Below are positions 3-56,371 of a stretch of 64,000 bases of DNA, one piece after another. Position 1 is the first letter of the stretch; each line of letters begins with the position of its first letter. A program made the position numbers and the translations under genes. The notes under the pieces were generated by a model, which had not been told where the DNA came from, made no database searches, and saw only the letters and a program-made list of their open reading frames with translations. Source of the DNA: Candidatus Omnitrophota bacterium (GTDB lineage Bacteria; Omnitrophota; Gorgyraeia; Duberdicusellales; 4484-171); contig JBAWWL010000005.1 of assembly GCA_037146775.1 (NCBI GenBank), positions 33,848 to 97,847 of the forward strand, written 5' to 3'.

Positions 3-299
3 GTGGTATCAACGGGAAAAAATAACTCTACACCGGTGGGTGTTTTTAAAATTATCAATAAAGAAATCAACCCTACCTGGTTTAAGACCGGTGCGGTTAT
101 CCCCTCCGGTAGTCCAGAGAATATTCTAGGTACGAGGTGGATGGGTATCGAGAAGAAAGGATACGGCATACACGGTACTACGGAACCAGAACAACTGGGT
201 AAACAGGTTACCCTCGGCTGCGTGCGCATGAAAAATGAAGAAGTTGAAGAGTTGTACGATATCGTTCCCACGGGAACGGAAGTTACAATTATTGATTAA
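3..299 (+). CDS. L,D-transpeptidase catalytic domain protein, C-terminal fragment (5' end outside window)
   Basis: 98-aa ORF open at the window edge. YkuD-type catalytic signature HGT...LGCVRM (His/Cys). Confidence 0.6.
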   Translation: MVSTGKNNSTPVGVFKIINKEINPTWFKTGAVIPSGSPENILGTRWMGIEKKGYGIHGTTEPEQLGKQVTLGCVRMKNEEVEELYDIVPTGTEVTIID

Positions 300-372
300 A
301 TAATAACGATTCCGGTGATTAGGAGAATGATTCCAGAGATTTCAAAAATCACTGTAATCAACTTAAAAAAAT

Positions 373-9887: not shown

Positions 9888-10310
9888 ATGAAAAAAGGTT
9901 TTACTCTTGTAGAAATTATGATCGTAGTCGCAATCATTGCCTTATTGGCGGCCTTAGCCATACCTAACCTGTTAAGGTCAAGATTAAATGCTTCGGAAGG
10001 GTATGCTCAAGCAACCTTAAGAGCTATTTCGACGGCTGCTGAAAGTTATGCTGCTGCCCATGAGGGGAAATATCCAGCGGTCAGTCTCACTGCAGATTTA
10101 TTTGGCGCTGACCCAAAATATATCAACAAAGATTACGTAGCGGATTGTACTGCTGGAAGTCCTTGTCAGGGGTATAGTTTTGCTTATACCGCTGCTGTTA
10201 CGGGTTACACTTCAACCGCCACACCGCAAGGAGCCCTTGTTGCTAAGGCAAAATCATACAGTATTACTACTGGTGGTGTTTTGACCGGCGCAGTTGCTGC
10301 GGCAGAATAG
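9888..10310 (+). CDS. pilA: type IVa major pilin (prepilin, N-methylation site G|FTLVE)
   Basis: MKKG|FTLVEIMIVVAIIALLAALAIPN class-III signal peptide. C-terminal Cys pair (DCTAGSPCQGY). AAGGAGG SD. Confidence 0.85.
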   Translation: MKKGFTLVEIMIVVAIIALLAALAIPNLLRSRLNASEGYAQATLRAISTAAESYAAAHEGKYPAVSLTADLFGADPKYINKDYVADCTAGSPCQGYSFAYTAAVTGYTSTATPQGALVAKAKSYSITTGGVLTGAVAAAE

Positions 10311-10330
10311 GACTTAGTTGTTTCGATTAT

Positions 10331-10366
10331 AACCGCCTCTTTAAAAAAGAGGCGGTTTCTTATTTT
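10331..10366 (+). terminator. rho-independent terminator after pilA1
   Basis: aaccgcctcttt-aaaa-aaagaggcggtt stem-loop followed by tcttatttt. Confidence 0.8.
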
Positions 10367-10478
10367 CTGGCAGATATTTTATGTAAATATCTGCTTTACG
10401 TTGATGCTCCATACGTATATAATAAAATATAATCTTCCTTGCATCGAATAGCAGGATTTTCCAAGGTTACGGTGAAGA

Positions 10479-47060: not shown

Positions 47061-48644
47061 ATGGTTTACCAAGATTTATTAAAAGGCATAGGGGAAATTT
47101 GCGGGATACAGCTGCTGGACGTTAGTGAGCGTTACCATGACGAAGTATACGTAAGCGTTCAGAAAGAAGATTTTAAAAAAGCCTGTATAGCGCTGCATAA
47201 ATACCTGCGTTCTCCGGTCATGACGCAGTTTGCCTTAGACAACCGCCAGGAACAGAAAGTTTTTGTTCTGTATTGCGGTTTTATGAGTATAAGATACAAA
47301 AAATGGGTTTTTGTGGTTACTGAAATTCCGGCTGATACCGCGCAATTCGATTCTCTGTCTAAAGAACTCTATTCAGCTACTTTGTTTGAGCGCGAAATTA
47401 AAGAAATGTTTGGCATAGAGCCATGTAACAGTCCCGATACGCGCAGCTTGCGGTTGCATGACGAAGTCTGGCCGAGAGGCCAGTACCCTTTAAGAAAAGA
47501 TTTTAAGACAGGTTTGTCCCAAGCTAATTTATTGGGAGAATATGCTTTTGCTAAAGTTGAGGGTGAGGGCATTTTTGAGGTTCCGGTCGGCCCGGTCCAT
47601 GCGGGTATTATCGCGCCCGGGCATTTTCGTTTTAGCTCGGCAGGCGAGCCGATTATCAATTTGGAAATCAGGCTCGGTTTTACGCATAGAGGAGTAGAAA
47701 AACTTTTTGAAGGTAAAAATATTTTCGAAGCAATAAAGCTTTCGGAGTGTGTCGCGGGCGACGCCGCCTTCGGCCACAGTTGGTCATTTTGCCAGGCAAT
47801 TGAAAAAAACTGCGGCGTAACTGTGCCGAAAAATTCTTCGGCTGCCCGGGCAATCCTTTTAGAGCTGGAGCGGATGTATAATCACGTAAACGATATAGGC
47901 GGTATCGCCATTGATGTGGGGTTTAGTTTTCCTGCGGCTTACGCTTCTTTAATGAAAGAAACGATATTACAATTAAACGAGAAAATTACCGGCAGCCGCT
48001 ACCTAAAAGGAGCGAACACGATAGGCGGAGTAAACTTTGATTTAAACGAAGAAAAGAAAAGACTCATTAAAAGCTCTTTAGGTGCCTTTGCGAAAGATTT
48101 CGAAGAGCTTAAAAACATATTGTTTTCCAGTGTTTCTTTTATGGACAGGGTAGATGGCACCGGTATATTGAGGAAAAAAACCGCAGAGGATTTTGGCGTG
48201 GTAGGCCTTTGTGCCAGAGCCTCCGGGATAGCCGCGGATTTGAGAAAAGATTTTACCGGCATATATGATAAAGTTAAGTTTCATTCAGAGAAACAGGAAA
48301 CAGGGGATGTTTTGGCCAGACTGAATCTGCGGATTCTTGAATGCGAAGAATCTATGCGTTTAATAGAACAATTTTTGCGTATCGTAGGTGGGTCAGAGAA
48401 TAAAATCTTAATCAGGCCGCAACCCAAGGCAGGTTTTGCTTTGGGGTACATAGAAAGCTGGCGCGGCCCGGTGCTCTATTGGGTTAAGATCGATGCTCAA
48501 GGTTTTATTGAACGCTGTAAGATTGTCGACCCTTCATTTCATAACTGGCCGGCTCTTGCGTACGCGGTGTTAGGTAATATTATTCCCGATTTTCCTTTGT
48601 GTAACAAGAGTTTCGATCTGTCATATGCGGGTAACGACCTATAG
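47061..48644 (+). CDS. fused NuoC-NuoD-like / group-4 hydrogenase large-subunit-like protein lacking all four NiFe-ligating cysteines
   Basis: N-terminal 30-kDa-subunit-like domain. GPVHAGIIAPGHFRF block. L1 position reads SECVAGDAAFGH instead of ERxCGxCxxxH. C-terminus SFDLSYAGNDL instead of DPCxxCxxR. Confidence 0.75.
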   Translation: MVYQDLLKGIGEICGIQLLDVSERYHDEVYVSVQKEDFKKACIALHKYLRSPVMTQFALDNRQEQKVFVLYCGFMSIRYKKWVFVVTEIPADTAQFDSLSKELYSATLFEREIKEMFGIEPCNSPDTRSLRLHDEVWPRGQYPLRKDFKTGLSQANLLGEYAFAKVEGEGIFEVPVGPVHAGIIAPGHFRFSSAGEPIINLEIRLGFTHRGVEKLFEGKNIFEAIKLSECVAGDAAFGHSWSFCQAIEKNCGVTVPKNSSAARAILLELERMYNHVNDIGGIAIDVGFSFPAAYASLMKETILQLNEKITGSRYLKGANTIGGVNFDLNEEKKRLIKSSLGAFAKDFEELKNILFSSVSFMDRVDGTGILRKKTAEDFGVVGLCARASGIAADLRKDFTGIYDKVKFHSEKQETGDVLARLNLRILECEESMRLIEQFLRIVGGSENKILIRPQPKAGFALGYIESWRGPVLYWVKIDAQGFIERCKIVDPSFHNWPALAYAVLGNIIPDFPLCNKSFDLSYAGNDL

Positions 48645-48650
48645 AGAAAC

Positions 48651-48724
48651 GATTACACAGATTTTTAGGAATGATTACACAGATTGAGAAATCAGTGTAA
48701 TCTGCATTTAATCGGTGTAATCTT
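48651..48724. promoter_or_regulatory. array of four GATTACAC boxes (two direct, two inverted; 20-22 nt phasing) between the large- and small-subunit genes
   Basis: gattacacagatt at 48651 and 48673. cagtgtaatctg at 48693. cggtgtaatctt at 48713. Confidence 0.55.
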
Positions 48725-48735
48725 ATTTAAAAAAT

Positions 48736-49272
48736 ATGATTCAGATACTTAAAAACAGATTGATAAAAGGCATCGTATCGCAGCCGGTTGAGCTAAAATC
48801 TTTAGTCAAAGATAATCTTGCTGCCGTGGAGCTTGAATCTGTTGGTTCGGAGCTGCAAAAATTAATACGCAAAAAATTCGGCAGGTCTTTACATATCAGG
48901 GAAGTAGACACCGGTTCCTGCGGCGCCTGCGATTCGGAAATAATTTCTACTACTAATCCCCTGTATGATGTGCAGCGTTTCGGTGTCAATTTTGTCGCTT
49001 CGCCCCGTCATGCTGACGCGCTTATGGTTACCGGGCCGGTATCAAAAAATATGCTTGGCGCTTTAAAAAAAACCTATGGGGCTATGCCGGAGCCAAAGTT
49101 TGTAATTACTGTCGGAGATTGCGCTCTTGCCGGAGGGGTATTTAAAGATTCTTATTATACCGCCGGCGGCGTTAATGCGATTCTCCCGGTTGCTCTGCAT
49201 ATTCCGGGTTGTCCGCCAAAACCATTGGAAATAATCACTTCACTGCTTACATTTCTTTCCTGTTGTAAATAA
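48736..49272 (+). CDS. NuoB/HycG-like small subunit with intact [4Fe-4S] ligands
   Basis: GSCGACDSE, GDCALAGG and HIPGCPP motifs. Confidence 0.8.
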   Translation: MIQILKNRLIKGIVSQPVELKSLVKDNLAAVELESVGSELQKLIRKKFGRSLHIREVDTGSCGACDSEIISTTNPLYDVQRFGVNFVASPRHADALMVTGPVSKNMLGALKKTYGAMPEPKFVITVGDCALAGGVFKDSYYTAGGVNAILPVALHIPGCPPKPLEIITSLLTFLSCCK

Positions 49273-50730: not shown

Positions 50731-51129
50731 ATGAAACTAATTACTCGTAACACCGACTATGCTCTGAGATCTATATGTTTTATCGCCCGGCACGAAGAAA
50801 GAACGATTTCGGTTTCGGAATTGGTAAAAGAATTAAAAATACCCCGATCATTCTTAAGAAAGATTCTGCAGATATTGACCAAAAAAGAAATTCTTAAATC
50901 GGCGAGAGGTTTGGGGGGGGGATTTTTGTTGGCTGTACCAACACGCAAGATTCTACTGACAGATTTGATTAAAATATTTCAAGGCCAGTTGAATCTAAAC
51001 GAATGTTTTTTTAAAAAAATGCCATGCCCGAATATGGAAAAATGTATTTTAAGGAAAAAAATAAGTAAAATCGAGCGATATGTATTACGTGAATTGAAAA
51101 CTATTACCATAGCTTCTTTATTGGGATAA
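50731..51129 (+). CDS. Rrf2-family transcriptional regulator with three-Cys Fe-S ligation motif
   Basis: N-terminal wHTH (TDYALRSICFIA). C(103)-x5-C-x5-C pattern (NECFFKKMPCPNMEKC) like IscR/NsrR. Confidence 0.8.
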   Translation: MKLITRNTDYALRSICFIARHEERTISVSELVKELKIPRSFLRKILQILTKKEILKSARGLGGGFLLAVPTRKILLTDLIKIFQGQLNLNECFFKKMPCPNMEKCILRKKISKIERYVLRELKTITIASLLG

Positions 51130-55295: not shown

Positions 55296-55404
55296 AAATA
55301 AGGAAAAGATAGGCCAGGCAAGCATTTTTGTATCCTTGTAAAAGCAGCGCAAATATGTTATATACAAGGTGTAAAGTGTAAAAGTGACAATTTGGTATTT
55401 ACCC

Positions 55405-55490
55405 AGTGAAAAGGCAAACCAAGAGTAATCTTGGGACGCAAAGCTAAAGGTCCCGCGAGTAGCGGGAAGCCTGGCTGCCAAAGGGGAGGA
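55405..55490 (+). promoter_or_regulatory. c-di-GMP-I (GEMM) riboswitch aptamer
   Basis: GGCAAACC + 12-nt GNRA hairpin (aagaGUAAucuu) + GGGACGCAAAGC in the same order and spacing as the Vc2 aptamer. Followed by a P2-like hairpin cccgc-gagua-gcggg. Confidence 0.75.
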
Positions 55491-55587: not shown

Positions 55588-55857
55588 ATGTATAGAGGTA
55601 ATGATATTCCTAGTAGATTGAGGCATCGCGTGATTACCATGCTAAACCGTGAAGAGCTGGATTTCTTGGATAAGTTGGGCAAAGACGCGCTTTTTACTAC
55701 CGGGCACAAGCTTTCTTACAATGAGATCTTAGTCGGCCTGGTTGAATTTGTCAAAGAAATCGGCCTTTCCGGAGAACGCATTGATTCGTACAATGCGCTT
55801 AAAGCAAGGATAGTTCAGCGGGTGCGCACTGTTGCGGGGAAAAACGAACATGAATAG
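55588..55857 (+). CDS. small protein with ribbon-helix-helix-like N-terminal pattern
   Basis: 89 aa. GGAGGGAGG SD. HRVITMLNREELDFLDKLGKD fits the beta-strand/helix-A pattern of CopG/RHH proteins (inference). Confidence 0.35.
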   Translation: MYRGNDIPSRLRHRVITMLNREELDFLDKLGKDALFTTGHKLSYNEILVGLVEFVKEIGLSGERIDSYNALKARIVQRVRTVAGKNEHE

Positions 55858-55894
55858 TATTGTGATATTGAATATGAACAAGAGGAGGTGCCCC

Positions 55895-56371
55895 ATGAAA
55901 AGGACAATCGTTTTCATCGCGTTAGAGCTTGTTTTGTTGTTGGTGGCAGTCAGTCTTTATGCGCAGGCTCCCGGTAAGGTCGATCCGCTTTTGTCGACGA
56001 TGCCCTCGCGAGAAGCGGGCGTGCAGCAGCCATCGATACGGATTGATGAGGAGAATATGAAGTTGATTAACAAAAATACCACTGCGTATACAGAGCCAGC
56101 AAATAAAATGGGCACCGGCATAGTCAATGTAGCTACCGGCTGGGCGGACGTGCCTAAGAAAATTTCCGACAGGTCTGCAGAACAAAATCCTTTGGCCGGG
56201 CTCACAATTGGTTTCGGAGAAGGAGTCGTAACCGGAGTGGCGCGTACTACTGCGGGCGCGCTTGACGTGGCTATGTTTAGTATACCCCCGTATGATGCGC
56301 CATTAATGGAGAGCGAATATAAAGTTAGCAATCCCAACGAGGGATTTAAGATAGATCTTTTAAGTTGGTAA
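55895..56371 (+). CDS. secreted hypothetical protein
   Basis: GAGGAGG SD. Signal peptide MKRTIVFIALELVLLLVAVSLYAQA. Gly/Thr-rich mature region. Confidence 0.4.
   Translation: MKRTIVFIALELVLLLVAVSLYAQAPGKVDPLLSTMPSREAGVQQPSIRIDEENMKLINKNTTAYTEPANKMGTGIVNVATGWADVPKKISDRSAEQNPLAGLTIGFGEGVVTGVARTTAGALDVAMFSIPPYDAPLMESEYKVSNPNEGFKIDLLSW

Follow-up and report, generated by a model that had tools for sequence, protein, structure and literature searches.

The 64-kb stretch of DNA analyzed here (hereafter the window) comes from a Candidatus Omnitrophota bacterium and carries an Ehr/Hyf-like cluster of NuoL-, NuoH-, NuoM/N-, NuoCD- and NuoB-like genes. Its contig is also present in the Logan assembly of SRR12676968. 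Between the NuoCD-like large-subunit gene and the NuoB-like small-subunit gene (the CD/B junction) there is a gap of 91 nucleotides (nt), most of which is taken up by an array of four short boxes, two direct and two inverted. This array belongs to a stereotyped, dispersed, multi-phylum family of arrays with a fixed box order, and in other genomes the boxes of this family are physically associated with genes that encode GxxExxY proteins. The window array is probably a gene-less ("solo") copy, comparable to a transposable element of the miniature inverted-repeat type (MITE) or a repetitive extragenic palindromic (REP) sequence, of this palindromic family tied to GxxExxY cassettes. A role for the array as a dedicated regulator of the Ehr operon is not supported.

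The array in the CD/B gap

The four boxes (Table 1) had been pointed out in an earlier model-made reading of the letters (the sequence-only reading), and their coordinates and sequences are confirmed: each of them matches the consensus GATTACACnGATT at 12 of its 12 specified positions (48/48 overall). The shorter motif GATTACAC occurs five times in the window, as compared with 1.17 +/- 1.04 expected occurrences (0 of 100 shuffles got to five), and four of the five fall inside 72 nt. Box starts are spaced by 22 nt in the direct arm, 17 nt from box 2 to box 3 and 20 nt in the inverted arm, which makes the array a helically phased palindrome with boxes about two helical turns apart. Read directly, the underlying unit resembles a repeat of 9-11 nt, ACACnGATT, with GATT at 48651, 48660, 48673 and 48682 and AATC at 48690, 48699, 48710 and 48719, that is, approximately one unit per helical turn.

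The phased palindromic layout and the ability of the inverted boxes to pair, both proposed in the sequence-only reading, are borne out. A nested RNA hairpin is predicted, formed by boxes 1 and 4 on the outside and boxes 2 and 3 on the inside. Its energy is -25.4 kcal/mol, versus -13.8 +/- 2.7 in shuffles (z -4.2), and for the minus strand z is -5.3. No Shine-Dalgarno sequence is visible before the ATG of the NuoB-like gene. A promoter and terminator scan, which for promoters is a weak test, called no consensus site in 48645-48735, and no tRNA was found by a tRNA scan. Similarly, an Rfam scan of the whole window at the gathering threshold gave no match at the array, and a permissive Rfam scan of 48500-48900 gave chance-level matches alone (E 3.5 and 9.1).

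Table 1. Coordinates of the array, its flanking genes and the second copy in the window
Feature	Position	Strand	Remarks
NuoCD-like large-subunit gene, 527 aa	47061..48644	+	PF00346, PF00329, weak PF00374; stop 6 nt before box 1
Intercistronic insert, whole	48645..48735	+	6-nt left flank, palindromic element 48651-48722, 13-nt A-rich tail
Box 1, GATTACACAGATT, direct	48651..48663	+	pairs with box 4
Box 2, GATTACACAGATT, direct	48673..48685	+	starts 22 nt after box 1; pairs with box 3
Box 3, GATTACACTGATT on the minus strand (AATCAGTGTAATC on the plus strand)	48690..48702	-	separated from box 2 by a 4-nt loop, GAGA
Box 4, GATTACACCGATT on the minus strand (AATCGGTGTAATC on the plus strand)	48710..48722	-	pairs with box 1
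NuoB-like small-subunit gene, 178 aa	48736..49272	+	ATG 13 nt past box 4
Degenerate second element with three boxes (two direct, one inverted)	301..372	+	boxes GATTCCGGTGATT (309-321), GATTCCAGAGATT (329-341) and AATCACTGTAATC (347-359)

A dispersed family with a fixed box order

Metagenome contigs were scanned with the exact pattern GATTACACnGATT-N(3-16)-GATTACAC, which yielded at least 120 loci. A family element was defined by two or more direct boxes and, after them, two or more inverted ones, with 17-26 nt within the arms and 16-52 nt from box 2 to box 3, and elements were counted with up to two mismatches allowed per box. Among the matches listed, to which all the counts in this paragraph refer, the direct-direct-inverted-inverted order was found in 44 elements from 42 loci and the reversed order in none; for three-box forms, the same comparison gave 115 versus 1. 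The median start-to-start spacings were 22, 29 and 21.5 nt. Twenty of the 25 elements with both flanks classifiable lay between the stop codon of one gene and the start of a co-directional one (four were convergent and one was divergent), at median distances of about 11 nt from the stop and about 19 nt from the start, versus 6 and 13 nt in the window. The window array thus shares with the family its box order, its spacing, its placement in a stop-to-start gap and its variable presence at orthologous sites.

The element is found in many unrelated gene contexts. Several contigs hold two to four copies, and in one subfamily extra terminal hairpins produce a mosaic element of about 175 nt. Of 45 copies, 35 have a palindrome that is longer by one base (T...A). 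Some upstream genes end on the T+GA that borders box 1; for example, in contig L106 (at 1454-1544) an 871-aa host gene has its stop codon there. This contig, together with L133 and L191, encodes proteins with 62-71% identity to those of Omnitrophota genes. In L106 an element is present where the corresponding window junction is empty (29 nt), so that presence and absence at orthologous sites are seen in both directions.

Other arrangements of the boxes were also observed. Tandem arrays of a 22-24-nt unit in a single orientation comprise 10 copies in L135 (1667-1886) and six in L144 (5672-5799), and the boxes are therefore able to expand as direct repeats. In the subfamily present in L085 (2412-2700) and L153 (346-450), the loop bears a conserved module, GTTTCAAAAATACAATTTATGTTGA, and the L085 element has four direct and four inverted boxes. 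In addition, 32 IMG/VR contigs classed as viral (L203-L234) match the box-pair pattern, mostly as box pairs or as tandem runs of 9 nt; a GxxExxY gene was found on none of these 32 contigs.

Within the box, only the central N is free; the boxes are otherwise invariant, and hence hold no covariation information beyond this position. Between hairpin partners, the N agreed at frequencies of 0.45 (0.46 expected) and 0.34 (0.41 expected), which amounts to no covariation, and adjacent direct boxes shared it above expectation (0.64 vs 0.45, and 0.57 vs 0.41). In one arm the spacers are rich in A, and in the other they are rich in T; their duplex energy within elements (-0.36 kcal/mol) versus between elements (-0.31 +/- 0.20 kcal/mol) is uninformative, since all of them are A-/T-rich. 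The exclusive order, the invariant box and the indifferent N fit a unit that is recognized by its sequence, and fit less well with selection for any hairpin. Strictly conserved boxes with a free N are compatible with recognition by a protein, and the fixed box order would also be explained by descent from one master copy.

GxxExxY nuclease genes between the arms

In nine pattern-selected loci the arms stand about 370 nt apart and enclose a gene of about 122 aa, the product of which has a PD-(D/E)XK fold (TIGR04256 "GxxExxY protein", E 4e-37; PF13366 PDDEXK_3, E 1e-34). In a hidden Markov model (HMM) search, all nine GxxExxY genes of the pattern-selected loci were flanked by boxes, and none was found without them. 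An unbiased test was provided by homologs that were retrieved by protein sequence alone (L195-L202), and here boxes were present at four of four loci, in three different operon positions. The first of these positions is the rpsK/rpsD junction, where boxes stand on both sides of the gene in L196, from a Deltaproteobacteria metagenome-assembled genome (MAG), and where L195 has kept the downstream pair and lost the upstream pair; rpsK/rpsD cassettes thus occur in two lineages among the loci retrieved by protein. The second, in L197-L199, belongs to a contractile-injection (eCIS) operon, where the cassette separates a T4 gp19-like tube gene from the gene that comes next, and the third, in L200-L202, lies between pstB and phoU, both with boxes on either side. 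The co-occurrence of gene and boxes at unrelated operon junctions implies that they move as a unit.

The fit between gene and boxes is close: the ATG of the cassette lies 0-18 nt past box 2, and its TAA stop often overlaps the AATC of box 3. Such an overlap is seen in L137 (~459), L196 and L200 (~10369), and in L137 and L200 the ATG takes the place of the last ATT in box 2. The window array is not itself a cassette, since no GxxExxY gene stands in the short loop between its boxes 2 and 3.

The cassette between rpsK (S11) and rpsD (S4) sits in the alpha operon (L097, 213-673; L137, 61-493; L195/L196, near 10001-10369). Its GxxExxY proteins are 79-89% identical across several metagenome lineages, and for this reason the insertion looks old and vertically kept in a highly conserved operon.

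Homologs with 31-42% identity are also found in cultured bacteria, on plasmids and chromids, where they are co-directional with both annotated neighbors. Examples are radA-GxxExxY in Bacteroides finegoldii, fabD-GxxExxY-fabG in Sphingomonas and ade-GxxExxY in Bernardetia. Related arrays, of the CACnGA / TCnGTG or CGCGGAT type, lie on at least one side of the gene in six of eight such homologs. Bernardetia has CACAGAG upstream and CTCTGTG downstream; B. finegoldii has three CACAGAGGA-type units upstream and three CCTCTGTG-type units downstream, with a period of 9 nt; and Treponema saccharophilum has ACACGGATT upstream and AATCCGTGT downstream. The unit in Fusobacteria bacterium ZRK30 is AATCGGTGAAAATC, and Sphingomonas parapaucimobilis has CACGCGAAG-type units on the upstream side only. 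In Gemmatirosa kalamazoonensis, three CGCGGAT boxes, a loop and three ATCCGCG boxes follow the gene, and the box is identical to that of an insert in the Ehr operon of locus L002 (see below).

The succession of direct boxes, sense gene and inverted boxes was considered as evidence in its own right and rejected, as it is mathematically inevitable in a palindromic frame; the only informative orientation is the co-orientation of the gene with its host neighbors. Nothing on the flanks of GxxExxY genes or on the box sequences was found in the literature searched.

The CD/B junction in related operons

The genomes closest to the window are Omnitrophota MAGs, with 67-69% identity in the CD protein. 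The stop codon of CD and the start codon of B overlap or are at most 24 nt apart in 59 of the 65 relatives in which both genes could be placed, and in a wider survey of 70 loci the median CD/B gap was 3 nt, with a gap of at least 45 nt in only nine loci (eight distinct). Because this junction is tight in most relatives, the gap in the window is an insertion into an ancestrally tight junction, which was presumably translationally coupled. The sequence-only reading had suggested a regulatory device within the Ehr operon and had named beforehand, among the observations that would speak against it, a lack of conservation in related genomes. Most relatives have no such boxes at the orthologous junction, and a regulatory device of the operon is not supported.

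The other CD/B inserts differ from one another, and most are palindromes made of short repeated boxes. The box type is CGCGGAT in L002; CACGGAT, CACTGAT and CACCGAT in L030; and AGTAGAG in L245, as an AGTAGAG/CTCTAC box palindrome. The L013 insert contains one CACCGATT/AATCGGCG pair in addition to other modules. Several families that share the design of phased short boxes in inverted arrays are thus held by these genomes. In 1.03 Mb of related Ehr loci, the boxes of the window family (as a GATT-N5-GATT double array) were found nowhere except in the window's own copy, and the distribution of this family is therefore patchy.

The closest relative by NuoB (L243/L244, 78% identity) has a CD/B insert of 87 nt. 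It is colinear with the window element, spacers included, at about 70% identity; the boxes in it have decayed, and as RNA it shows no folding beyond that of shuffles (z 0.05). Between the window and L243, the identity at four-fold degenerate sites of the flanking genes is 52-57%. As the two inserts align colinearly, the element appears to predate the split between these species, and the perfect consensus would have been kept in the window lineage only.

The idea of CD/B as a unique hot spot for insertion was considered and rejected. The L/H junction is likewise often gapped (large gaps in 5 of 22), which looks like tolerance in repeat-rich genomes. At the NuoL-like/NuoH-like junction of L002 (~700-925) there is a phased palindrome of GGTTAAC boxes with a period of about 10-11 nt.

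The second copy and other features of the window

According to the sequence-only reading the box was not repeated elsewhere in the window, and this needs correcting, for a degenerate copy is present (Table 1), where it fills the space from a stop codon (297-299) to the start codon, ATG, of an accA-like gene (373). Both window copies have "AAC" on the left and the tail "TTAAAAAA(A)T ATG" on the right, and they are distinguished by one compensatory change (C8 of box 2 to G, and G of box 3 to C). The second copy folds weakly (z -1.6).

The nGATT motif is already found in the native 3' ends of upstream genes, near the stop: in AACGATTTATAA (window 48630-48650) and similarly in relatives, in TTGATTAA (window 285-310) before the accA copy, and alike in the ends of the CD genes of L003, L030, L007 and L002. 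Such native motifs might seed or attract arrays; alternatively, they are due to chance.

The window also contains, at 55403-55482 on the plus strand, a c-di-GMP-I riboswitch aptamer (RF01051; 63.7 bits versus a gathering threshold of 35, E 3.9e-10), which precedes small open reading frames at 55588-55857 and 55832-56371.

Alternative explanations

The strongest rival takes the array for an RNA element that acts in cis in the Ehr mRNA and is under selection, be it a site of RNase III/E processing, a barrier to decay or a weak attenuator, which would uncouple the small subunit from the large one and tune their relative levels. We consider this explanation unlikely, although several observations agree with it: the strong predicted hairpin (z -4.2) is followed by UUAUUU; palindromic inserts recur at CD/B, with gaps of at least 45 nt in 9 of 70 related loci; the element shared by the window and L243 is conserved above four-fold degenerate sites; and a compensatory change separates the two window copies. 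However, the only ortholog, that of L243, does not fold better than its shuffles, an overlapping stop/start is retained by most relatives, and across the family the free N and the spacers are without pairing constraint. A hairpin, moreover, does not require an exclusive box order (44 to 0 among the matches listed). There is also no Rfam match and no terminator call, identical elements are found in unrelated operons, and the L/H junction is equally tolerant of insertions (5/22). The sequence-only reading had left the choice between an operator, an internal promoter, an attenuator and a structured RNA; from this range, the ability to form a strong hairpin of RNA or of single-stranded DNA stands, whereas regulation specific to Ehr finds no support and neither a promoter nor a terminator was called.

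Less probable still is a classical REP sequence or REPIN moved by a RAYT protein (IS200/IS605-like HUH), or a MITE derived from an insertion sequence with a DDE transposase. The array is a short intergenic palindrome that exists in multiple copies, is variable at orthologous sites and has mosaic modules, and its inverted box pairs, which span 72 nt, agree with the terminal inverted repeats and the length of about 50-500 nt by which MITEs are recognized. However, REP sequences are defined by a GTAG or CGTC tag beside a G+C-rich stem-loop of 20-40 nt (PMC3733652), and the array has neither the tag nor the stem. A MITE would be expected to show a target-site duplication, and none was found among the family copies. 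Furthermore, the sole gene found between the arms is that of a PD-(D/E)XK nuclease and not of a transposase. As to a related autonomous element of the kind known for MITEs, the gene-carrying form encodes a restriction-fold nuclease and no known transposase.

The third alternative, a multi-site operator for a dimeric transcription factor, such as the Rrf2 protein encoded about 2 kb downstream (50731-51129), that controls an internal promoter of the small-subunit gene, deserves very little credence: the palindromic layout phased at about two helical turns would suit it, and a weak sigma-70-like pair read by eye (TTGAGA-17-TTTAAT) overlaps boxes 2-4, but this pair fails the second-hexamer criterion of the promoter scan, which called no site in the gap, the boxes are missing from most orthologous operons, arrays adjoin genes of unrelated kinds and, in other phyla, flank GxxExxY genes, and the downstream Rrf2 and prismane genes are retained in L247/L248 with a box-less CD/B junction of 6 nt, which tells against the Rrf2 operator suggested in the sequence-only reading. 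The box also appears unlike the published IscR or NsrR sites.

A model for the solo array

We therefore return to the reading of the array as a solo copy of a family tied to GxxExxY cassettes. According to this model, a solo copy would have inserted into the once tightly coupled large-/small-subunit junction of an Ehr-like operon. Arrays of the same family bracket GxxExxY genes that lie co-directionally in operons of several phyla, without visible promoters of their own. The boxes may be the recognition sites of the GxxExxY nuclease, and breaks made by it, once repaired through recombination (homing or gene conversion), would spread or refresh both the arrays and the gene. Gene-less copies would then be either deletion derivatives or empty targets, kept by break-induced gene conversion; conversion-based maintenance of this kind could explain why a perfect copy in the window stands beside a decayed ortholog in L243 and a degenerate second copy.

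At the level of expression, the element is presumably co-transcribed within the Ehr operon, where it would form a nested hairpin in the polycistronic mRNA. With the stop/start coupling lost, the small-subunit gene likely relies on de novo initiation on the A-rich leader. The element may also act, incidentally, as a putative mRNA decay barrier or processing site, as is the case for REP, ERIC and Correia elements.

A wider proposal can be put forward tentatively, and we hold it to be somewhat less than an even bet. GxxExxY proteins could be sequence-specific nucleases for phased CACnGA(T/G) arrays and, together with these arrays, could constitute an unrecognized class of selfish cassettes that, in at least six phyla, lodge co-directionally in operons (those for ribosomal proteins, pst, fab and contractile injection among them). 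These cassettes would be spread or kept by break-induced homing or gene conversion into gene-less arrays, and the Ehr array would be an empty target, or solo site, held at consensus while its ortholog in a sister species decays.

A number of points weigh against the solo-copy reading and the model built on it. Neither the 64-kb window nor 73 related Ehr loci contained a GxxExxY gene in the HMM search, and for this reason the partner protein is only putative for the window genome; the interaction between nuclease and boxes is itself one that we infer. A restriction-like nuclease by itself explains homing, and not transposition or the colonizing of new sites. No defined insertion boundary was found, and a search for target-site duplications gave no direct repeat above chance (offsets 0-4, k = 2-5, 45 copies), a test on which it bears that the true element ends are uncertain in subfamilies with extra modules. 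All 48 box positions are perfect in the window while the L243 ortholog is decayed, and the identity of about 70% between the two inserts exceeds the 52-57% of four-fold degenerate sites; this excess could mean selection for a local function and not homogenization. Similarly, the repeated insertion of differing palindromes at CD/B and L/H could mean that they are of benefit, and not only that they are tolerated.

Significance

With this result, a tempting regulatory interpretation of the Ehr operon falls away. In wider terms, the result links GxxExxY, a large family of unknown function with thousands of members across phyla, to a conserved DNA motif array, and also to promoterless insertion between co-directional genes, even between rpsK and rpsD. 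This gives a testable hypothesis for what GxxExxY proteins recognize and suggests that there may be small mobile or homing cassettes of a new type, whose solo derivatives resemble MITEs. The elements break translational coupling and put hairpins in operon mRNAs, and may in this way affect expression in the compact genomes of uncultured phyla such as the Omnitrophota.

Comparison with known systems

The array appears to belong to a known class, that of the MITE/REP-like intergenic palindromes of bacteria; the association with GxxExxY genes and the lodging in operons across phyla appear to be undescribed in the literature searched. Among members of this class, it is comparable to the Correia elements (CREE/NEMIS) of Neisseria and the ERIC/IRU elements of enterobacteria, which are about 70-150 nt long, have inverted arms, lie in intergenic regions and are co-transcribed, form RNA hairpins and are variably present at orthologous sites. 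Some Correia and ERIC elements are processed by RNase III or RNase E, which alters mRNA stability. Unlike these elements, the arms described here are phased arrays of short units and not continuous terminal inverted repeats, and no TA or other target-site duplication was found. In addition, the present family is multi-phylum, its box is nearly invariant, and it has a gene-carrying form with a PD-(D/E)XK nuclease.

A looser analogy is offered by the intervening sequences of 23S rRNA ("four helix bundle / S23p"), in which a small, selfish-looking open reading frame is bracketed by inverted repeats within a highly transcribed unit and the stem could be cleaved by RNase III. This is an analogy only: the open reading frame belongs to a different family, the hosts here are protein-coding operons, and the box sequence is conserved and not only its pairing.

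Similarities to REP, BIME and REPIN sequences are also apparent, as these are extragenic palindromes, often intercistronic (classically between malE and malF), which are built of mosaic modules and possibly stabilize mRNA. Inverted doublets of REP sequences form larger hairpins (PMC3116915). In contrast, the single boxes of the present family are not palindromes, and the associated gene is GxxExxY and not RAYT.

Homing endonucleases of the PD-(D/E)XK type, free-standing or encoded in introns (for example I-Ssp6803I and I-Bth0305I), resemble the gene-carrying form in that a small gene for a restriction-fold nuclease splits a sequence that is contiguous, as a palindrome with a short loop, in gene-less copies. 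The presence of the cassette at several conserved operon junctions, from which movement as a unit follows, is a further similarity. They differ from it in their intron or intein context, which is lacking here, and in their target, since the putative target of the presumed nuclease here is a dispersed repeat and not a unique conserved gene.

Finally, the cassettes of integrons, with their attC sites, are likewise small, promoterless and co-oriented, and are accompanied by imperfect palindromes (57-141 nt) that are recognized as folded DNA. Unlike attC, the present arrays have no GTTRRRY core and no cassette array or integrase nearby. The two systems also differ in layout: in attC the whole palindrome comes after the gene, whereas here the gene lies between the two halves of the palindrome.

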